IMG/VR virus record: IMGVR_UViG_3300034122_001045
DNA length: 64,000 bases
Direction: 5' to 3' (one strand)
DNA from: a virus
Lineage: Duplodnaviria > Heunggongvirae > Uroviricota > Caudoviricetes
Shown: positions 13,262 to 55,697 of the stretch, piece after piece
Position numbering within the stretch: the first letter of the stretch is position 1
Layout: each line of letters begins with the position of its first letter
Translations under genes and position numbers: made by a program
The notes under the pieces: generated by a model
What the model was told of the DNA's origin: nothing
The model's input: the letters and a program-made list of their open reading frames with translations, nothing else
Databases searched by the model: none

Positions 13262-14542
13262 ATGCTGGACGTTTCGAATAACGAAATAAGAAAGACAGTG
13301 AGCTATGTTTCGAAAAGAGACGGTTCAACTGAAAACTTCGATAGAAATAAAATTGTTACCGCAGTTTCAAAAGCTATGAGATCAGTTGGAATTAAAAGTA
13401 AAACTATACCAGAAGAAGTTTCATTGGAAGTGGCCGATAAACTTAACAGCGATGCTCTCAATGATGTTATCGTAAGCGTCGACGCAATTCATAGAACAGT
13501 TGAAAACGTAATCATGGATATGGGTCTGCACGATCTCGCTCGAGAATACATCCTCTATCGTTATAACAATATGCCAAGTATCTTTCGTAAGAGAACAAAT
13601 CTTAAACCTTACGAATATCCACAACTCATCGAGTACCTTGAAGCAATCCGCCATTCCTATTGGGTTCATACAGAGTTTAACTATTCATCCGACATTCAGG
13701 ATATGAAGGTTCGTATGACTCCTCAGGAAGCAGATATTGTAAAGAAGGCAATGCTTGCTATCTCTCAGATCGAAGTTCAAGTCAAAACGTTCTGGGCGAA
13801 GGTTGGCGATAAGATGCCAAAGCCAGAAGTACAAGCCGTTGGTGTTACCTTTGGTGAGTCTGAAGTTCGTCATGCTGATGCGTATTCAAACCTTCTTGAG
13901 ATAATGGGTCTTAACTCTGAGTTTGAGAACCTAGTTGAAGTACCAGCGATTAAGAAGCGTATCGCATATCTCGAGCAGTCGCTTCAGACTCCAGTTGATG
14001 ATAAGGACTACTTCCATAAGATCATTCTCTTTTCTATGTTCGTTGAAAATGTATCGCTATTCTCTCAGTTCCTTATTATGATGGCATTCAATAAACATAA
14101 GAACGTCCTTAAGGGTATCTCTAACGCTGTTGAAGCTACCTCAAAAGAAGAAGACATTCACGCTCGTTTTGGTTTCGAACTCGTGAATATCATTAAAGCA
14201 GAGAACCCAGACTGGTGGAACAAGGATACCATATCCGAAGTCAACCGTCTCTGCAAAGAAGCATATAAGGCAGAAGCTATGATCGTTGATTGGATCTATG
14301 GTGATTCGGATCTTGACTTTCTTCCGAAAGAAACCGTAAAAGAATTCCTCAAGCACCGTTTCAATCAGTCGCTTCAGGCAATCGACCTTAAACCTATCTA
14401 TGAAACCGATGTCAATGTAGTGAAGAGCACGAACTGGTTTGTTGAAGAAATCCTCAGCACAAAGAACGTTGACTTCTTCGTCAAGCGTAGCACTGCATAC
14501 TCAAAGAAGACAAAGTCATTCACAGAATCAGATCTATTCTAA
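13262..14542 (+). CDS. nrdB: Ribonucleotide reductase small subunit (NrdB) with N-terminal ATP-cone domain
   Basis: The N-terminal ~90 aa, VSKRDGSTENFDRNKIVTAVSKAM, are ATP-cone-like. The remaining ~330 aa are a ferritin-like R2 (helical, conserved E/H iron-ligand positions). Followed by nrdA. Confidence 0.75.
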   Translation: MLDVSNNEIRKTVSYVSKRDGSTENFDRNKIVTAVSKAMRSVGIKSKTIPEEVSLEVADKLNSDALNDVIVSVDAIHRTVENVIMDMGLHDLAREYILYRYNNMPSIFRKRTNLKPYEYPQLIEYLEAIRHSYWVHTEFNYSSDIQDMKVRMTPQEADIVKKAMLAISQIEVQVKTFWAKVGDKMPKPEVQAVGVTFGESEVRHADAYSNLLEIMGLNSEFENLVEVPAIKKRIAYLEQSLQTPVDDKDYFHKIILFSMFVENVSLFSQFLIMMAFNKHKNVLKGISNAVEATSKEEDIHARFGFELVNIIKAENPDWWNKDTISEVNRLCKEAYKAEAMIVDWIYGDSDLDFLPKETVKEFLKHRFNQSLQAIDLKPIYETDVNVVKSTNWFVEEILSTKNVDFFVKRSTAYSKKTKSFTESDLF

Positions 14543-26986: not shown

Positions 26987-27952
26987 ATGAAAGCTTTACT
27001 ATCAGCGGCGGCAATTATTGCTTTGGCGTCCACGACTGCGTTTGCAAGAGATAACGTTCAAGTAACAGGATCGTCTACAGTACTACCATATGCAACCATT
27101 GTCGCAGAGGCATTTGGTGAAAATTTTGATTTTCCGTCGCCAGTAGTTGAAGGTGGTGGTTCGGGTGCAGGCCGTAAGAAGCTCTGCGAAGGTGTTGGTG
27201 AAAACACTGTTGACATCGCAAATAGTTCTTCAAAGATGAAGGATGAAGAAAGAGCCAAGTGTGAAGAAGCAATTGGTGAAGTGACTGAGGTTCGTATTGG
27301 TTATGACGGTATCGTGTTTGCATCGAACATCGATCAACTTAATATCGATAATCTAACAGTCGAACAACTCTATAGCGCTCTACACGAGTCGAGCACTGCA
27401 AAACTCTGGAGTGAAGTCGACTCGACTCTTCCAGAAGTAGCAATCCTTGCATACATTCCAGGTACCAAACACGGCACTCGTGAAGTGTTCGATGTAAAGG
27501 TGATGGAAGAAGGTTGTAAAGCAGCTCTCGGTGTTGAGAAACTCGATGACGATCAAAAGAAAGCTTGTGTGAAAGTAAGAACTGACGGTGCAGCAGTTGA
27601 CATCGATGGCGACTACACAGAAACACTTGCTCGTCTTGATGCTAATAAAACATCGCTAGGTGTGTTTGGTCTTAGCTTCTATCAGAACAACACTGATAAA
27701 CTAGAAGTTGCCACGGTAAGTGGCGTGGCACCAAGCGTAGAAACCATCTCAAGCGGTGACTATCCAATCAGCCGTCCACTTTACTTCTACGTGAAGAACG
27801 CTCACCTCAGCGTCATTCCTGGTCTGAAGGAATACATCGAGTTCTTCGTGAGTGATGAGATGGCAGGTCCTGATGGCGCTCTTGCACAGTATGGATTGGT
27901 TCCAGATCCAGAACTTGCAGCTACTCAGGCTGAAGTTTCTGCTCTTAAATAA
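26987..27952 (+). CDS. pstS: Periplasmic phosphate-binding protein PstS (auxiliary metabolic gene)
   Basis: Signal peptide. VTGSSTVLPYATIVAEAF is the PstS family N-terminal signature. 321 aa. Confidence 0.85.
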   Translation: MKALLSAAAIIALASTTAFARDNVQVTGSSTVLPYATIVAEAFGENFDFPSPVVEGGGSGAGRKKLCEGVGENTVDIANSSSKMKDEERAKCEEAIGEVTEVRIGYDGIVFASNIDQLNIDNLTVEQLYSALHESSTAKLWSEVDSTLPEVAILAYIPGTKHGTREVFDVKVMEEGCKAALGVEKLDDDQKKACVKVRTDGAAVDIDGDYTETLARLDANKTSLGVFGLSFYQNNTDKLEVATVSGVAPSVETISSGDYPISRPLYFYVKNAHLSVIPGLKEYIEFFVSDEMAGPDGALAQYGLVPDPELAATQAEVSALK

Positions 27953-27954
27953 GA

Positions 27955-28725
27955 ATGAAATATAAAAGCATCTTCATAAGTGATGTGCATTTAGGAACCA
28001 GAGGGTGTCAAGCAGACGCCCTCTGTGTTTTCTTAAAAAACAACACAAGCGAAAACCTATTCCTAGTTGGTGATATGCTGGATGGTTGGCGCTTAAAGAA
28101 ACGTTGGTACTTTCCACAGAGTCATGCCAATGTGATACGCAGAATACTCACGGCAGCTAAGCGTGGCACTAGAGTAGAATACATATTAGGTAATCACGAT
28201 GAAGCAGGCCGTAAGTTTTTAAACTTTGATATCAGCTTCGGTAATATTAAAGTAACTAACAGACAAGACTACATAGGTTTAGACGGCAAACGTTATCTGG
28301 TTATTCATGGTGACTTCTTTGACGTATTGATGCATGATAAAAAATGGTTGATGCACATTGGAGATACTTTGTATGACGCTATGATATATGCCAATGTTCA
28401 GTTTAATCGAGTAAGAAGTTTGTTTGGTATGGACTATTGGAGTTTAAGTAAATATCTAAAACAGAATACTAAACACGCGTTAAACTTTATCAATCGTTAC
28501 GAAGAACATCTAGCTGCCTATTGTAAGCAACATGGATATGACGGAATAATTTGTGGTCACATTCATCATGCTGAAATAAAAGAAATAAATGGTGTTATAT
28601 ACATGAACGATGGCGACTGGGTCGAGAGTGCCACCGCTCTGGTAGAACACTTTGATGGAAGATGGGAGATAGTGCATTATGCCGAAGATCTTAATAGTTA
28701 CAGACAACTTACCGAATCAGATTAA
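27955..28725 (+). CDS. Metallophosphoesterase (LpxH-like / phosphodiesterase)
   Basis: ISDVHLG, GDMLDGW, GNHDE, IHGDFFD and GHIHH motifs. Confidence 0.65.
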   Translation: MKYKSIFISDVHLGTRGCQADALCVFLKNNTSENLFLVGDMLDGWRLKKRWYFPQSHANVIRRILTAAKRGTRVEYILGNHDEAGRKFLNFDISFGNIKVTNRQDYIGLDGKRYLVIHGDFFDVLMHDKKWLMHIGDTLYDAMIYANVQFNRVRSLFGMDYWSLSKYLKQNTKHALNFINRYEEHLAAYCKQHGYDGIICGHIHHAEIKEINGVIYMNDGDWVESATALVEHFDGRWEIVHYAEDLNSYRQLTESD

Positions 28726-29686
28726 TGGTGTGGTTACGACCTACAAAAATATTGAGACGTATGCGATTCGCGACGGTTATACTGTTGATTATATTCATCC
28801 CGGGATGTACGGCCATATTGATTGCCCAAAGTACAATGAAGTTAAGCTTGCCTGGGCACCTCCTTGGGTTGTTGGGAAAGAGATCAAGAAGATTGATCCG
28901 GATTATATACACATCGCCACAGAAGGTCCTATGGGTATGTCTGCTAGAAGGTATCTTGCAATACGTGGGATTAAGTACAATACTGCTTACCATACTAAGT
29001 TTCCTGAAGGTGTAAGGACGTTACTAGGAATTCCTGAAGGAATTACTTGGGCAGTTGTGCGCTGGTTCCATAAGAATAGCAATAAGGTACTCACTACGAC
29101 AAAATCAATGGTCGATGAACTTCATGCGCATGGATTTAATAACAATGTTATTCATTGGACTCGAGGAGTTGATAGGGATATATTCAAACCGGCAGTGAAA
29201 GAACCATGCTCGCACATTAACCTCGTTTGCGTGAGTCGAGTAAGCAAAGAAAAAAATCTGGAAGCTTTTCTTGAGATAAACTACCCCAATGCAGTTAAAA
29301 CTATCGTAGGCGATGGTCCTATGTTAGAAACATACAAGAAGCAATATCCTTACGTGAACTTTGTAGGTGCCAAACGTGGTGCTGAACTCGCGCATTATTA
29401 TCAACAGGCTGATGTTTTTGTGTTTCCTAGTCGTTGGGATACATTTGGATTGGTGATGATTGAGGCAATGGCATGCGGTACTCCGGTCGCTGCTTATCCT
29501 GTGCAAGGACCATTAGACGTAATAGATCAAGATGTAACTGGTTATATGGATGAGGATATCACTATCGCTATTAAAAAATCTCTTGACCTCGATAGAGAAT
29601 CAGTATACAAATTCAGCATGAAATGGGATTGGGGAAACGCTTGGAACATTTTTCGAGACAATCTTATAAACTGTAAAACTAACTAG
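28679..29686 (+). CDS. Glycosyltransferase family 4 (GT-B fold)
   Basis: C-terminal E-x7-E motif, FGLVMIEAMACGTPV. Confidence 0.7.
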   Translation: MPKILIVTDNLPNQINGVVTTYKNIETYAIRDGYTVDYIHPGMYGHIDCPKYNEVKLAWAPPWVVGKEIKKIDPDYIHIATEGPMGMSARRYLAIRGIKYNTAYHTKFPEGVRTLLGIPEGITWAVVRWFHKNSNKVLTTTKSMVDELHAHGFNNNVIHWTRGVDRDIFKPAVKEPCSHINLVCVSRVSKEKNLEAFLEINYPNAVKTIVGDGPMLETYKKQYPYVNFVGAKRGAELAHYYQQADVFVFPSRWDTFGLVMIEAMACGTPVAAYPVQGPLDVIDQDVTGYMDEDITIAIKKSLDLDRESVYKFSMKWDWGNAWNIFRDNLINCKTN

Positions 29687-45386: not shown

Positions 45387-46247
45387 ATGGCAATACTCAT
45401 TGACTTCAACCAAGTGATCCTAGCATCACTATTTGTCGGTATCGGCAATCACCACAACATTGACTTGGATGAAAATCTTCTTCGTCATATGTTTCTAAAC
45501 TCAATCCGTTCAAACCGAAAAAAGTTTCATAAAGAGTTCGGTGAGATCGTTATCTGCGCCGACGGTAAGAACTCTTGGCGGCGAGAAACCTTTCCTTACT
45601 ACAAAGCAAACCGCAGAAAGTCTCGTGAAGAGTCTGAGCTCGATTGGAACGAACTGTTTCGAATGATCAATACCATTCGTTCTGAGCTTAAAGATCACTT
45701 CCCTTATAAGGTCATTCATATCGACCACTGTGAAGCAGACGACATCATCGGTGCTGTCGTCCATGAGCATGGAACAGAACTAAACATCGGCGCTGAGCAG
45801 TTCCTTATCCTTTCGGGTGATAAAGACTACATCCAATTGCATAAGTATGCAAACGTAAAGCAGTACGATCCGGTTCGCAAGAAATGGGTTCAGAATTCAG
45901 ATCCCGATAAATACCTCATGGAACATATCATTAAAGGCGACAGCGGTGACGGTGTACCGAACATTCTATCTCCAGACAACTGTCTTGCGATTGGTGAACG
46001 CCAAAAAATGATGACTGCGAATCGCCTGGCCAATTTTTTGAAAGGCCCTGATCACATGGATGAAAATACAGTTAGAAACTATCATCGTAATAAGATGATG
46101 ATTGATCTGACTGAGATTCCAGATGCTTATAAAAAGAAAATCCTTGAAGACTACAGCGTGGATAAAGAAGTTGGGAGATCTCAACTATTTGATTACTTTA
46201 TGAAGAACAAACTTAAAAATTTAATCACTGATATACAGGACTTTTGA
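45387..46247 (+). CDS. rnh: RNase H / 5'-3' exonuclease (T4 rnh, FEN family)
   Basis: ILIDFNQVILASLFV...IVICADGKNSWRRETFPYYKANRRKSREES.DWNELF...HIDHCEADDIIGAVV aligns closely with T4 RNase H. Confidence 0.85.
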   Translation: MAILIDFNQVILASLFVGIGNHHNIDLDENLLRHMFLNSIRSNRKKFHKEFGEIVICADGKNSWRRETFPYYKANRRKSREESELDWNELFRMINTIRSELKDHFPYKVIHIDHCEADDIIGAVVHEHGTELNIGAEQFLILSGDKDYIQLHKYANVKQYDPVRKKWVQNSDPDKYLMEHIIKGDSGDGVPNILSPDNCLAIGERQKMMTANRLANFLKGPDHMDENTVRNYHRNKMMIDLTEIPDAYKKKILEDYSVDKEVGRSQLFDYFMKNKLKNLITDIQDF

Positions 46248-47506
46248 ATGTTACTCTCCCTATCGGAAATTGTAAATAAAGCGGCAGAACTAAAGACGAA
46301 TCAAGAAAAGATCGAATGGCTTCGTAAGAATGATTCTGTTCCACTTCGAACAATACTTAAGAACACCTATGATAAGAGTGTGGAATTCCTTATTCCAAAC
46401 ACTCCTCCGCCTTGGAAGAAGAACAGCTACATCGGCGTTGAAGGTATGCTTTTGAAAGAAGCAAGACGTCTTCGTATCTTTGTGAAGGGTGGCGGCTACG
46501 ATACTCTTAATCAAGTCAAACGCGAAAACCTTTTCATCAGTCTTTTAGAAGATATTGATAATGGTGATGCAGAACTTTTGTGTAAGATGATTGCACAAAA
46601 ACCATTGACAGGTCTGCCTCGAAGTGTTATAGTACAATCGTTCCCAGGATTAATCGAAGGAGTAAAAGAGGAACAAGATGGCAAAGTCGTTTAAGAAATT
46701 CCGCGAGCAGTGGGATGATGATTGGAATGACGATTCTGATGACAAGGATCGTGAACTTCAGAAACGTCGCGATCAGCGTCGAAAAAAGACCGCTGAGAAA
46801 TTTTCTCGATTTGATGAAAAGGCTGATGATTAATGTCTAAGGTGATACTATCTGACGTCGATGGTTGTATGGTTGTTTGGAAAAACGAATTCAACAATTT
46901 CATGGAGAGACACGGTTTCGAAAACGTTGTCGAAAGAGATAATAATATTCATCCGTGGTTGTATCGCGACGACGTATATGAGATTGAAGATCTCTATGGT
47001 ATCAGTAAACAGCAAGCTGACTTTATGGTCGATATGTTTAACGAGAGTATCCACCTAGGCCATCTACCTCCTCTGAAAGATGCGATTAAGTACATTCGAA
47101 AGCTACACGAAGAGCACGGATATGTATTCCATTGCATCACTGCCTGTGGTACTCATCATCGCGTACATGATCTTCGCCTCAAGAATCTTAACGATCTCTT
47201 TGGTTCTAATGTGATTAAACGGCTTGTATGTACAGAGTCAAGTAGGGCAAAGAGACCAATCCTTGAAGAGTACAAAGACTCTAGACTCTACTGGGTAGAG
47301 GATAAAGTATCGAATGCTATCATGGGGCACGAACTTGGCCTGCGATCAATTCTCATCAATCATTCATACAACCTAAATTACATTGAACATCCATTTGATG
47401 AACCTCAGTACCTAAGAGTAAATAATTGGAAACAAATCTACGATATCGTCGTAGACTCAGAGTAGTACAGGAATAAATACAATTAAGCAGATCTATATCA
47501 TGATGT

Positions 47507-48564: not shown

Positions 48565-48870
48565 ATGCCAGCGGTTGCCGTCTGTACTGTTGATACGATC
48601 ACCACCGGTCACGGTTGTGACGGCACCGCTCTCATACAAGGTTCTCTTCAGACAAAGGTTACGATAGGTGGAAAGAGAGTCGCTGTGCAAGGTGATGCAA
48701 TTGCACCTCATACTATTAATGCGGGACCAGTTTGTGTCCCGCATTCTTCTGTTATCAATGCGGGTTCTTCAAAAGTAACGATAGCAGGAATACCGGTTGC
48801 GCGTGTAGGAGACTCGGCCGACGCTGGGTCTGTGGCAACTGGGTCAGGTAAAGTATCATGCGGAGGGTGA
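48565..48870 (+). CDS. PAAR-repeat-like small protein (gp5.4-like spike tip candidate)
   Basis: 101 aa. Gly/Val/Ala-rich beta repeats (VAVQGDAIAPH, IPVARVGDSADAG). Confidence 0.4.
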   Translation: MPAVAVCTVDTITTGHGCDGTALIQGSLQTKVTIGGKRVAVQGDAIAPHTINAGPVCVPHSSVINAGSSKVTIAGIPVARVGDSADAGSVATGSGKVSCGG

Positions 48871-51751: not shown

Positions 51752-51780
51752 TTGACATTCGTTTAGAATCAGTGTATTCT
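51752..51780 (+). promoter_or_regulatory. Early promoter, conserved cassette
   Basis: Identical core to the cassette at 49833. Confidence 0.6.
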
Positions 51781-51816: not shown

Positions 51817-52773
51817 ATGGCTCACATGATTGAAATGATCGACGGCGTTGCCCAGATGGCTTACCGCTCGTCGAAAGGCAAACCTTGGCATGGCCTTGGT
51901 ACTCCGGTTGGCGACGATATGACTCCTGCCGAAATGATGAAGGCCGCTGGCCTTGATTGGAATGTTCAGAAGGTTGACTCCTTCGTCGAATTCAACGGCA
52001 AGCGCATTCCGACCGGTCAGCAGTCGCTCATTCGCGAAACTGACGGTAAGATCCTGACTCAGGTCGGTCCTGGTTGGAATCCGGTTCAGAACGAAGAAGC
52101 CTTTAACTTCTTCACCGACTTTGTTTCCAAAGGCGACATGGTGATGGACACCGCTGGTTCGCTCCGCGACGGTCGTATCGTCTGGGCTCTTGCAGATGTT
52201 CGTGACGGTTTCACTCTGTTCGGTGGCGATGAAGTGAAGGGTTACTTGCTCTTCTCCAACCCGCACCAGTACGGTAAGTCGATCGACGTTCGTTTCGTAC
52301 TTGAGCGCGTTGTCTGCAACAACACTCTGACTGTTGCTCTGGCTGAGAGCGGTCAGGCTGCTGTTCGTGTCAACCACCGTTCGGTCTTCGACGCTGAGCG
52401 CGTGAAAGAACTGCTCGGCATCTCGCACCGTAAGGTCGAAACCTTCAAATCGGCTGCTGAACTGCTTGGTTCGAAGCAGTACGGTCAGAAAGATCTGGAA
52501 AAGTACTTCGGTAAGATCTTCGGTGAGTCGACGAAGGAAGGTAAGCTTCTGTCGCCGACCGCTGAACGTGCCCTCGAAGTCGTCGAGACTCAGCCCGGCG
52601 CAGAGTTCAAGAAGGGTTCGTTCTGGCAGATGTTCAACGCAGTTACCTACCTGACTGACCATGAACTCGGCCGTTCGAACGACACTCGTCTTTCGTCGGC
52701 TTGGTTCGGTGCCAACGCAAAGCGCAAGGTTGACGCTCTAAACCTGGCAGTAGAAATGGCAGAGGCTGCGTGA
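51817..52773 (+). CDS. DUF932-family (phage/plasmid-related) protein, strongly codon-optimised
   Basis: The KPWHGLG motif near the N-terminus is typical of DUF932/TIGR03299. 318 aa. Confidence 0.5.
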   Translation: MAHMIEMIDGVAQMAYRSSKGKPWHGLGTPVGDDMTPAEMMKAAGLDWNVQKVDSFVEFNGKRIPTGQQSLIRETDGKILTQVGPGWNPVQNEEAFNFFTDFVSKGDMVMDTAGSLRDGRIVWALADVRDGFTLFGGDEVKGYLLFSNPHQYGKSIDVRFVLERVVCNNTLTVALAESGQAAVRVNHRSVFDAERVKELLGISHRKVETFKSAAELLGSKQYGQKDLEKYFGKIFGESTKEGKLLSPTAERALEVVETQPGAEFKKGSFWQMFNAVTYLTDHELGRSNDTRLSSAWFGANAKRKVDALNLAVEMAEAA

Positions 52774-53397
52774 GCAGCCTCTCTTTACTTTAGAAAGAGT
52801 ACTATGAATAAGATCCTTAACGAACCGGTTCTATTTAACCGAGAACAGATCGCAAAGATCGAAGATCTGAAGCGAGCAAGATATGTATGCGCAACCGAAA
52901 GAGACGATAAGACTATCGAGATATTCTACTCAGAGGATGCGCATGTTGCTGGCGGACGATACTTTGGCCTATACTTTAGCAGTCTAGATAATCAACTCTA
53001 TATTACTAACGGCGGATTCGTTGAAGATCAAGAGATCTCTGCCGTGATCGCTGATGACGGCGAGATTGTATATAGTAGGTTTCGACACGACTATCGATCC
53101 TCATCCGATGGTTCTGTTTTCATTGACGGCGGTCGATCCTATACAAGAGTTAGCTTGGTTGATGAATCTCGATATGCAACACTTATCGTAAAAGAGGGAG
53201 TTCTACAGGTAAAGAATGTCTGACTTTAAGATCTCAGACTATGACTATATTGGAAGCTCGATTGGAAATGCGTTTTTCAGTGGAGTTTCCTTTGAACAAC
53301 TTTGGGATTGTGTATCACTGTCCCAAACAAGAGAAGAATTGGATGCCGCAGTTACTGCAACCATTCGATTGAATGAATTAACAAAAGGAGAAGAGAT

Positions 53398-53643
53398 ATG
53401 AACGATGCATATAACGTAACCGCCGATGAACTTCGTCAGTTCATCGAACGCTACGAACAGCTTGAGTCAGAAAAGAAAGACGTCACAAATTCTCAAAAGG
53501 AATTGATGGCAGAAGCTAAGGGTCGTGGATACGACACGAAAGTCATGAAGAAGATCATCGCCATTCGTAAACGTAAAGCAGATGCAATCGCCGAAGAAGA
53601 AGCAGTTCTTGAGATGTACAAAGCTGCATTGGGTATGATCTAA
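53398..53643 (+). CDS. gapR: GapR-like nucleoid-associated DNA-binding protein (DUF2312)
   Basis: LRQFIERYEQLESEKKDV..ELMAEAKGRGYDTKVMKKIIAIRKRK aligns residue-by-residue with Caulobacter GapR (LKSIIDRVERLEVEKAEI..EVYAEAKGNGFDVKVLKKVVRIRKQD). Confidence 0.85.
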   Translation: MNDAYNVTADELRQFIERYEQLESEKKDVTNSQKELMAEAKGRGYDTKVMKKIIAIRKRKADAIAEEEAVLEMYKAALGMI

Positions 53644-54278
53644 TGAGTAAGGAAGAAAGTAAACGCCTTATTGAAAAGATATATCCTGACTTCGATAATC
53701 GTTTTGGCGAGTGGGGCTGGTGTTCTCTAAACAAAGCTGGGTGTATTATTGACTGTATTGATGATATCTTTACTCACGTGAAAGATCCGGTATGCGTAGA
53801 GATTGGCGTCTATGGTGGAAAGAGTGTCATTCCTGCAGTTCTAGAACTTAAGAGAATGAACTCTGGCAAGTTCTATGCGATTGATCCATGGGATAACGTA
53901 GAGGCAACCAAGGGCTATGACGGCGACAACTACAAGTTTTGGACCAACGTCAACATGCCTTGGATCTATAATGTCTTTACTACAGTCTTGGAAGAAAACG
54001 ACTGTGGAAAGTACGTAGAGATCATTCGAAAGCCAAGCGACGATGCGCCTGTTATCTTCGATATTGATTTTCTTTATATTGATGGTCAGCATACAATCCA
54101 AGCAATTCGTGATGTAAATAAGTATGCGCGCCAAGTAAAACTTGGTGGTTACTGTATTGCGGACGATATTAACTGGGGAGATGTTTCTCTCGTTCCTGAT
54201 GCTCTTAAAGAGATTGGGTTCGAAGAACAACGATGGATTGACGGCGCTATCATCTTTAAGCGGACGTCTATTAAATAA
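53643..54278 (+). CDS. Class I SAM-dependent methyltransferase (O-methyltransferase-like)
   Basis: VCVEIGVYGGKSVIPA (glycine-rich motif I). Acidic motif II near DPWDN. Confidence 0.45.
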   Translation: MSKEESKRLIEKIYPDFDNRFGEWGWCSLNKAGCIIDCIDDIFTHVKDPVCVEIGVYGGKSVIPAVLELKRMNSGKFYAIDPWDNVEATKGYDGDNYKFWTNVNMPWIYNVFTTVLEENDCGKYVEIIRKPSDDAPVIFDIDFLYIDGQHTIQAIRDVNKYARQVKLGGYCIADDINWGDVSLVPDALKEIGFEEQRWIDGAIIFKRTSIK

Positions 54279-54280
54279 AA

Positions 54281-54340
54281 GGCGGATCCGAAGACCCGCC
54301 GAGTTATTAGAAGGGGCCGGTTGTTTCCGGCCTCTTTTAT
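54281..54340. terminator. Bidirectional terminator between the convergent plus-strand genes and the minus-strand structural module
   Basis: Two hairpins: GGCGG-atccgaagac-CCGCC, and GGCCGG-ttgttt-CCGGCC followed by TCTTTTATTATT. There is an A/T run on the other side for the minus strand. Confidence 0.7.
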
Positions 54341-54342
54341 TA

Positions 54343-55653
54343 TTAGAATAGGTTCGAAACGCGAACTCTACGGTAGTAGACGTTGCTGTTAGCGGTAAGA
54401 GCACCTTCGCTACGGGTTGGGCCGAAAGCGAATGGGTTAGCAACCATACCGTAACGGGTTTTGAAGCCGATCTTTGGCTGGAAGCTGTTTTCACCAACTG
54501 CGCGGTACATCTGTAGTGGAACGTATGGGCAGTAGAAGAGACCTGCGTCGAATGCGGAGGATCCCTTATAGCCAACTACGAGGTAGTTTGCACCAGCGTA
54601 TGGGTCGATGTAAACTCTGTAACGACCGTTTAGAACACCAGCGAAGGTGTTTCCGGTGTCGTCAACGTTTAGAGCGTTGCTGTTAAGAGCTGGGGTGTAA
54701 TCGAGAACACCTGCCATCTGAAGAGCAGAAGCTACGTCAGAAGAACAGATAACGATGTTACCCTTGCCTCTACGAGTTGCTTTTGCAATCGCGTTGGCTT
54801 CGAGTTCGATCTGGAACATAAGACCCTTGAACTTCTCAACTGACCAACGGCCGTTTGAGTCAACGTCAAGATCGAAGATACCAGTTACAGCAGTGTTTGC
54901 ACCACCGGTTACGGCTGAGGTGTAAACAGTACGAACAACTTCACGGTTGATTTCTGCAAGGATTTCAGACTGTAGAATGTTTGCAAGTTCTGTTTCAGCG
55001 TCAAGACCGTGAACAGCGCGGAGATCCTGTGCAAGTTCACTGGTATATTCTGCTTTAAGAGCGCGGCTCTTTGCAGACACAGTAACTTTTTCGATAGCAA
55101 GAGCCATCTCTGCGAAGTTTGTTCCGTTTCCGTCGCCAAGCGCTTCAGCAGCAGCGGTTGTTAGACCAGTACCGGTTGGTGCTGTTGCAGCAGAACCAGT
55201 AACGCCAGTCATAGAGCCAGTACCGGAGAAGTCAGTGTCAGCTTCGTTGTAGAATGCTTCAACTGCGGTGTTACCTGACATTGCGTTGTAGTTAGAACGC
55301 ATTGCGAAGATAAGACCAGTTGGGCCAGTCATTGGCTGAACACCAGCGATGTCGTATGCCATTAGGTTTGGCATAGCACGACGAACTAGGCTGATAAGGA
55401 TTGGATCGTAACCAGCTTGTGGTGTGCTAGCACCAGCACCAAAACCGCCGGTTCCAGCGAAGTTGGTTGGTGTTTCCTGAAGAAGCGAAGTCATGTTGAT
55501 TGACGCGTCGCTGGTCTCAAGAAGTGCTTTCTCTGTGTTCTCTAGAAGAGTAGCAGTTACTGCTTTTCTGTGGTTGTCTGTGATTGGCGAGAAGGAAGAG
55601 TGCTCAAGAAGAGGACCCCACTTTTCGACTAAAGTTTTATTAGATTGACTCAT
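54343..55653 (-). CDS. 23: Major capsid protein (T4 gp23 homolog)
   Basis: LVEKWGPLLEH aligns with T4 LLNKWKPLLEG. LVRRAMPNLMAYDIAGVQPMTGPTGLIFAMR aligns with MVRRAIPNLIAFDICGVQPMNSPTGQVFALR. Confidence 0.9.
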   Translation of the reverse strand: MSQSNKTLVEKWGPLLEHSSFSPITDNHRKAVTATLLENTEKALLETSDASINMTSLLQETPTNFAGTGGFGAGASTPQAGYDPILISLVRRAMPNLMAYDIAGVQPMTGPTGLIFAMRSNYNAMSGNTAVEAFYNEADTDFSGTGSMTGVTGSAATAPTGTGLTTAAAEALGDGNGTNFAEMALAIEKVTVSAKSRALKAEYTSELAQDLRAVHGLDAETELANILQSEILAEINREVVRTVYTSAVTGGANTAVTGIFDLDVDSNGRWSVEKFKGLMFQIELEANAIAKATRRGKGNIVICSSDVASALQMAGVLDYTPALNSNALNVDDTGNTFAGVLNGRYRVYIDPYAGANYLVVGYKGSSAFDAGLFYCPYVPLQMYRAVGENSFQPKIGFKTRYGMVANPFAFGPTRSEGALTANSNVYYRRVRVSNLF

Positions 55654-55689: not shown

Positions 55690-55697
55690 TATTTATA
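55690..55697 (-). promoter_or_regulatory. T4-type late promoter TATAAATA upstream of gp23
   Basis: The reverse complement of tatttata at 55690-55697, about 37 nt upstream of the start. Confidence 0.65.

Follow-up and report, generated by a model that had tools for sequence, protein, structure and literature searches.

The window analysed here is a stretch of 64,000 nucleotides (64 kb) from a tailed virus (IMG/VR record IMGVR_UViG_3300034122_001045). A gapR homologue lies on its + strand, in a co-directional group of genes that meets the convergently transcribed major capsid gene gp23. The features of the locus are the following.

51752..51780, + strand: candidate sigma-70-like promoter, TTGACA-17-TATTCT, in the gap before the DUF932 gene (10 of 12 consensus matches)
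51817..52773, + strand: DUF932 gene (TIGR03299, phage/plasmid-like), first in the putative unit (PF06067, E 5.8e-37)
52761..52782, + strand: G+C-rich hairpin over the DUF932 stop codon, a possible attenuator or terminator with a weak T tail
52804..53223, + strand: DUF7695 gene, in the co-directional block with gapR (PF24749, E 3.7e-6; phrog_12504)
53216..53401, + strand: reading frame of 61 amino acids with no function assigned, its stop overlapping the gapR start (ATGA)
53385..53390, + strand: AAGGAG, Shine-Dalgarno-like, 7 nt 5' of the gapR ATG (read from the sequence)
53398..53643, + strand: gapR homologue, 81 amino acids, a single GapR_DNA-bd domain (PF10073 and PDB GapR matches)
53643..54278, + strand: class I methyltransferase gene of the Methyltransf_24 type (PF13578, E 2.4e-12; weak phrog_2675 match)
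54281..54332: a pair of hairpins resembling terminators, in the 64 nt that separate the convergent methyltransferase gene and gp23; one is at 54281-54300 (- strand, 8 pairs, T run), the other at 54319-54332 (+ strand)
54343..55653, - strand: gp23, major capsid gene and convergent neighbour (PF07068, E 6.6e-145), the landmark for the conserved synteny

The gapR reading frame fits these coordinates exactly, starting with ATG and stopping with TAA; the ATG of the methyltransferase gene (position 53643) overlaps its stop codon. The 61-amino-acid reading frame has no Pfam or PHROG match, and its homologues are located 5' of gapR in related phage contigs (59-100% identity). The DUF932 gene is kept 5' of gapR across the phage clade (72-100% identity), and the methyltransferase gene follows gapR in most of the related contigs (57-100% identity).

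The window is part of a T4-like myophage with a GC content of 42.6%, and the identical GapR protein is found on contigs of 205-218 kb. The opposite strand directly 3' of the gapR block codes for gp23, a T4_CASP family protein, the prohead protease, portal, tail tube, sheath and terminase. A long + strand block 5' of gapR includes the genes of ribonucleotide reductase, thymidylate synthase, DHFR, DNA ligase, RNA ligase, an SF1 helicase, RNase H and PhoH. With the gp23, portal, sheath and terminase genes flanking it, gapR is phage-borne, as the earlier note on this DNA had it. Megablast of the locus gave no match in 50,697 phage records, therefore no annotated close relative exists; the best capsid match among the phage records was 66.5%, to Sinorhizobium phages phiM12 and phiN3. 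The window represents a new T4-like myophage, its genome being about 205-218 kb long with 43% GC.

Some other genes of the window deserve mention. The early block (window positions 1-51000, e.g., 28679..29686 and 48565..48870) codes for several domains of the conflict or anti-defence type, namely Tad3 (anti-Thoeris), cREC_REC, YAcAr/SLOG, a GT4-conflict glycosyltransferase and PAAR, and two relatives (L007 and L009) also have Acb1. A pstS-like gene for a periplasmic phosphate-binding protein (26987..27952, PBP_like_2, E 8e-54) is an auxiliary gene of a kind typical for aquatic phages. In ribonucleotide reductase, the small subunit (13262..14542) carries an N-terminal ATP-cone, a domain normally found on the large subunit.

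The GapR (DUF2312) homology claimed in the earlier note is borne out. The 81-amino-acid protein matches Pfam PF10073, GapR_DNA-bd (formerly DUF2312, UPF0335), with E 1.3e-30 and 105.3 bits (cut-off 22.6); its residues 8-79 cover the whole profile (positions 1-72 of 72), and phrog_4212 is matched with E 1.7e-34. Among solved structures, Bosea GapR (6CFX and 6CFY) is matched at E about 7e-21 and Caulobacter GapR (6JYK, 6OZX and 6CG8, the last being the comparison that the note had proposed) at E 3e-16 to 6e-16. The end-to-end alignment with Caulobacter GapR also holds, residues 3-80 being paired with Caulobacter residues 10-88, though identity is only 41%. At the level of sequence, the match to the GapR family is far beyond chance.

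An AlphaFold2 monomer model of the protein (pLDDT 76.6) has four short helices folded back on each other and not the three-helix fold of GapR, and a Foldseek search with it gave nothing in the PDB at E <= 0.001; for obligate oligomers, models of the monomer are unreliable. We set this model aside as uninformative and take the sequence match to solved GapR as decisive.

To look at the residues relevant for function, we mapped those listed by Huang 2020 (PMC7498317) by aligning the window protein to Caulobacter GapR. In the latter, DNA is contacted by K34, K42, K49, K56, K59, K60, R63 and K66, while R26-E47, E28-R65 and E31-K66 form salt bridges between subunits (PMC7498317). Seven of the eight contact residues are kept in the window protein: K26, K34, K41, K48, K51, K52 and K58 correspond to Caulobacter K34, K42, K49, K56, K59, K60 and K66, respectively. 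The eighth, R63, corresponds to A55, and alanine is found here in the closest cellular GapRs too. All three dimer salt-bridge pairs are kept (R18-E39, E20-R57 and E23-K58). Compared with Caulobacter GapR, nine of the 14 hydrophobic positions of the dimer interface carry the same residue or a conservative replacement (one of the others is Q33 for I41), and 13 of the 14 match Tabrizicola GapR, the exception being I53, which is V in cells. The tetramer-interface residues are identical or conservatively replaced as well. Since the contact and dimer-interface residues are kept, a working clamp is most likely, and the window protein is almost certainly a working GapR homologue. Its oligomer architecture is a prediction from sequence alignment.

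The high identity of this protein to cellular ones (see below) raises the question of whether it belongs to the phage at all: the contig could be an assembly chimera, or the gene a very recent functionless passenger taken from the host. Such an origin would readily explain very high amino-acid identity to cellular proteins, and it is refuted by codon usage and synteny. The GC3 of gapR is 0.45, which is phage-like (the window mean is 0.42), against 0.73-0.86 in cellular gapR genes. At the nucleotide level gapR is only 74-76% identical to these cellular genes, and synonymous sites are saturated (pS 0.87-0.95) at a dN of 0.09. Between the gapR genes of two phage lineages dN/dS is 0.036. Furthermore, gapR occupies the same place in about 30 T4-like contigs that come independently from ENA, JGI and IMG/VR, have a GC content of 0.37-0.46 and share 70-100% major capsid protein identity with the window. 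The order conserved in them is DUF932, a few small genes, gapR, usually the Methyltransf_24 gene, and the convergent gp23. A chimera or passenger is thus hardly credible. Codon usage, saturated synonymous sites, dN/dS and synteny all show that gapR is not a recent pickup. Evidently, a host nucleoid protein can persist in a phage with little change in its amino acids even when its codons were rewritten long ago, and conservation of the protein despite the rewritten codons argues for real work during infection.

The gene block is not general to T4-like phages. We scanned IMG/VR with the major capsid protein; among the capsid matches listed, which did not include the closest relatives, at least 80 T4-like contigs (53-77% major capsid protein identity) have neither gapR nor DUF932 nor the methyltransferase gene near gp23. 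The absence of these genes beside gp23 in other T4-like contigs implies that the block marks a sub-clade. Within it, the phage GapRs share derived residues. At position 61, 13 of 14 distinct phage sequences have A, whereas P is found in 54 of the 73 cellular sequences; position 63 is D or E in all 73 and non-acidic in 12 of the 14; and position 53 is I or L in the phage copies and V in cells. In a neighbour-joining tree of 90 GapR sequences (79 columns) the phage copies come almost together with weak support: their monophyly was recovered in 23 of 200 bootstraps, and the ...KADAI subgroup in 89 of 200. As support from the tree is weak, the case for a single acquisition is made by synteny and the common residues and not by the tree. 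One divergent member (L124) is nearest to different Rhodobacteraceae.

The earlier note took the gene as a clue to an alphaproteobacterial host, and our results support this and sharpen it to Rhodobacteraceae/Paracoccaceae, whose cellular GapRs are up to 90% identical to the window protein. GapR forms of 81 amino acids (85-100% identity) are found on phage-sized contigs, and forms of 84-85 amino acids (about 84-91%) on contigs that reach 3.3 Mb and bear the names Tabrizicola, Pseudorhodobacter, Fuscovulum or Rhodobacteraceae. In a scan of cellular genomes, limited to one genome per species and the best 80 loci, Tabrizicola and unnamed Paracoccaceae came first (89-90%), followed by Gemmobacter, Rhodobacter, Fuscovulum and Falsigemmobacter (about 85%). 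These best 80 loci all belong to Rhodobacteraceae/Paracoccaceae except four: three MAG contigs whose titles give only Alphaproteobacteria or Pseudomonadota, and one with the label Variovorax. The last of these, CALRPT020000002.1, is a MAG contig assigned to the betaproteobacterium Variovorax paradoxus that carries a Rhodobacteraceae-type gapR (85%) and is probably mis-binned or mislabelled. In the nearest lineages gapR is located 3' of aroK-aroB in chromosomes of 62-67% GC, so these copies are genuinely cellular.

A small calibration supports, at the sequence level, the reading of host lineage from GapR similarity. GapR of the Caulobacter phage phiCr30 is nearest to Caulobacter GapR (68%, vs 40% to Tabrizicola), and the GapRs of phiM9 and RHph_N34 are nearest to that of Bosea, the Rhizobiales reference (64-68%). 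A GapR homologue is present in 140 phage records, and the names of at least 114 of them refer to alphaproteobacterial hosts. The clue has exceptions, as GapR is also carried by Synechococcus phage S-ESS1 and four Microcystis phage records. The S-ESS1 protein (NC_052968, 40976-41284) is of the Rhodobacteraceae type, with 71% identity to Tabrizicola and 52% to Caulobacter GapR, and is encoded in a locus of 61% GC. This is either a case of horizontal transfer or a host assignment worth re-examining.

As a possible second host marker we chose the DUF932 gene, whose GC3 of 0.61 is the highest of the larger genes (mean 0.42). Its homologues were found only on phage-like metagenomic contigs, none with an organism name, and carried no host signal; they are 73-99% identical across many such contigs, including a Tara Oceans sequence. 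The window has no tRNA genes to aid the host call. On the basis of this one gene, gapR, the likely host is an inland-water member of Rhodobacteraceae from the Tabrizicola/Gemmobacter/Rhodobacter group. The large T4-like phages of this clade, uncultured and present in many metagenomes, thereby receive a specific host assignment that can be put to the test.

Close similarity to GapR of the presumed host can also be read as a sign of host takeover by mimicry, with phage GapR co-assembling with host GapR into mixed tetramers, or competing with it, and so diverting or disabling replication and segregation of the host chromosome. The protein is 86-91% identical to GapR of the host lineage despite saturated synonymous divergence, and its dimer-interface and salt-bridge residues are those of Tabrizicola GapR except I53 for V. 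The phage-specific changes (I/L53, I56, A61 instead of P, a non-acidic residue 63) cluster in residues 53-63, i.e., in the alpha2-alpha3 tetramerisation region, although this clustering is a post hoc observation. However, conservation of cellular GapR across the family is strong in any case (73-95%), so high identity needs no special cause. The DNA-contact lysines are all kept and the whole length of the protein is under purifying selection, which a normal working GapR fits as well or better. We consider mimicry rather improbable and continue with a phage GapR that works on DNA in the usual way.

To see when gapR could be expressed, we examined the promoter and terminator signals of the region. 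The T4 late-promoter motif TATAAATA is present in nine copies against 2.8 expected, a number reached in none of 100 shuffles. Five copies are located just 5' of structural genes, the gp23 copy being at 55690-55697, and none was found on the + strand between 18930 and gapR. Sigma-70-like sites are as numerous in the region as expected by chance, and the candidate in front of the DUF932 gene is a weak consensus match only. The sequence suggests that gapR is probably expressed early or in the middle of infection together with the replication and nucleotide-metabolism genes. The role in packaging mentioned as possible in the earlier note finds nothing to support it: gapR is near the head genes but on the opposite strand, beyond the terminator-like hairpins, and has no late-promoter motif.

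The use of T4-type TATAAATA late promoters by this phage also fits another reading, where phage GapR would be the counterpart of T4 DsbA, a dsDNA-binding accessory factor for replication-coupled late transcription. T4 DsbA has been claimed in publications to be a remote GapR homologue. It matches PF10073 below the threshold (E 0.026), and hhalign pairs 49 columns of the GapR and DsbA alignments at E 1.2e-3, but with a probability of only 19%, which does not establish homology. The DsbA profile PF11126 did not match the window protein at E <= 0.01 (T4 DsbA itself has E 4e-41), and BLASTP of the window protein against T4 DsbA was not significant. Neither a PF11126 DsbA nor gp33 was found among the 62 small reading frames of the window. 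An absent DsbA would favour the counterpart, but the window is a third of the genome and the other two thirds could hold DsbA or gp33.

T4 and seven diverse Straboviridae share the order rnh - dsbA - gene 33. The gene next to rnh (45387..46247) in the window is of the DUF6433 type (phrog_461, no function assigned; region 45387..46694) and not dsbA, as could be expected if another protein did its work; but gapR is 7 kb further on and not in the rnh-dsbA-33 slot, and the gapR genes of phiM9, RHph_N34 and Cr30 are found in three other contexts, suggesting repeated independent captures. Going by the host names listed, and at the sensitivity of tblastn, phages of gammaproteobacteria have DsbA and phages of alphaproteobacteria have GapR, the two sets not overlapping. 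In vivo, DsbA itself has only a minor, poorly defined role, which counts against this reading too. All in all, we find it improbable that phage GapR is the counterpart of DsbA, and return to GapR as a factor of replication topology.

Caulobacter GapR is known from the literature as a tetrameric clamp that encircles overtwisted DNA with a preference for AT-rich sequences. It stimulates gyrase and topo IV and is present in only about 500 tetramers per cell. By analogy, we propose the following sequence of events for the phage. An ancestor of this T4-like clade would have taken gapR from a Rhodobacteraceae host, and the clade has kept it under strong purifying selection. The 81-amino-acid protein may form a dimer-of-dimers clamp round DNA, as Caulobacter GapR does, and this clamp would prefer overtwisted, AT-rich DNA. 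Made together with the early or middle replication and nucleotide-metabolism genes, phage GapR could load onto the replicating genome (about 43% GC vs 62-67% in the cellular contigs with the closest gapR), top up the small host GapR pool and help host gyrase and topo IV to clear positive supercoils ahead of the phage forks.

A role for the protein in DNA topology during replication is plausible because the contact and oligomer residues are kept and the gene belongs to a non-late block. We infer clamp assembly, DNA preference, topoisomerase stimulation, timing of expression and benefit to the phage, the biochemical properties (DNA preference and stimulation of gyrase and topo IV) being known for Caulobacter GapR only. 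The argument from dependence on host enzymes would be weaker if the phage had a type II topoisomerase of its own; no topoisomerase gene is present within the 64-kb window, out of a genome of about 205 kb. A captured, selected and working GapR that aids the topology of phage replication is the best explanation as a whole, and we give it a probability of about 50%. Its mechanistic part, the replication-topology role, is a tentative prediction that we hold slightly less firmly.

The same difference in base composition could be interpreted otherwise: phage GapR may coat the low-GC phage DNA and shield it from host nucleoid proteins, silencers and nucleases. The phage has 43% GC while the cellular contigs with the closest gapR have 62-67%, AT-rich DNA is preferred by GapR according to the literature, and the window codes for several anti-defence-type domains such as Tad3. 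Yet silencing or protection of DNA is not known for GapR, the literature noting no clear evidence of a xenogeneic silencer, and GapR does not form extended filaments. A shield of this kind seems very unlikely to us, and assistance to topoisomerases at the phage forks is preferred.

We can also speculate on a broader scheme. Phage GapR may be held at about 90% identity to the host protein since it must work with host GapR or with gyrase and topo IV on AT-rich phage DNA, and it may at the same time be the DsbA equivalent that links fork topology to replication-coupled late transcription in alphaproteobacterial T4-like phages. This combination is unlikely. If it were true, the genus of the host could be predicted from GapR similarity, and DsbA, obscure for so long, would gain a function.

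GapR in phages is already known, from phiCr30, the 140 phage records, PHROG 4212 and homologues listed in a review. The phiCr30 gapR was described earlier and is transcribed during infection. A 2025 paper (PMC12185513) states that it presents the first GapR in a phage genome; given the 140 phage records and the earlier phiCr30 reports, this claim is mistaken.

Some of the other phage homologues are unusual. In two IMG/VR contigs of 51-54% GC (L134 and L149) and in Ruegeria phage 45A6, where the match is annotated as FtsK, an FtsK-gamma-like winged-helix segment (KCSTSYIQRKLSIGYNKA...) is joined to a C-terminal GapR domain; these fusion reading frames are 284-361 amino acids long, with starts set by simple extension. 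In the Rhodobacter capsulatus phages RcPutin, RcIroh and others, the match to GapR is confined to its N-terminal half (residues 2-50, 71-74% identity). The gene of this group is annotated as DsbA-like and may be a truncated or rearranged GapR derivative.

Compared with the characterised archetype, GapR of Caulobacter crescentus (CCNA_03428; structures 6CG8, 6JYK and 6OZX), the window protein belongs to the same family and length class and aligns end to end, but lacks the 8-residue N-terminal extension and has RKRKADA instead of RKQDRAK in the alpha2-alpha3 turn. It is much closer to the cellular GapR of Tabrizicola (T. oligotrophica and Tabrizicola sp. MAGs), with 86-90% identity over the whole protein and the same DNA contacts, including A at the R63 position. 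Differences from the cellular proteins of Rhodobacteraceae are an N-terminus three residues shorter and the residues I53, I56, A61 (P in cells) and A63 (D/E in cells), while the gene differs in having phage codon usage and a phage gene block instead of aroK-aroB.

Like T4 DsbA (PF11126, 88-89 amino acids), the window protein is a small, helical, presumably dsDNA-binding protein of a T4-like phage, and the weak profile-profile match between DsbA and GapR aligns the pattern AK..G..K..K...R...E.E..LY. The closest parallel among phages is the T4-like Caulobacter phage phiCr30, also a low-GC phage of a high-GC alphaproteobacterium with a GapR nearest to that of its own host (68%). Its GapR is about 44% identical to the window protein and is encoded 5' of the gp45 clamp gene, not beside gp23, and probably represents an acquisition independent from that of the window clade. 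The PHROG 4212 homologues (of roseophages Ruegeria DSS3-P1 and 45A6 and of Rhizobium and Agrobacterium phages) have the same domain and come mostly from alphaproteobacterial phages. Other phage GapRs are 39-75% identical to the window protein, none exceeding 75%, and occur in varied contexts, some being fused to other domains. Placed among these systems, the locus is no new kind of system and adds a case to the question of what phage GapR does and of its possible link to T4 DsbA; it is of value in that it predicts the host of an uncultured phage clade sharply and clearly shows long-term selection on gapR.
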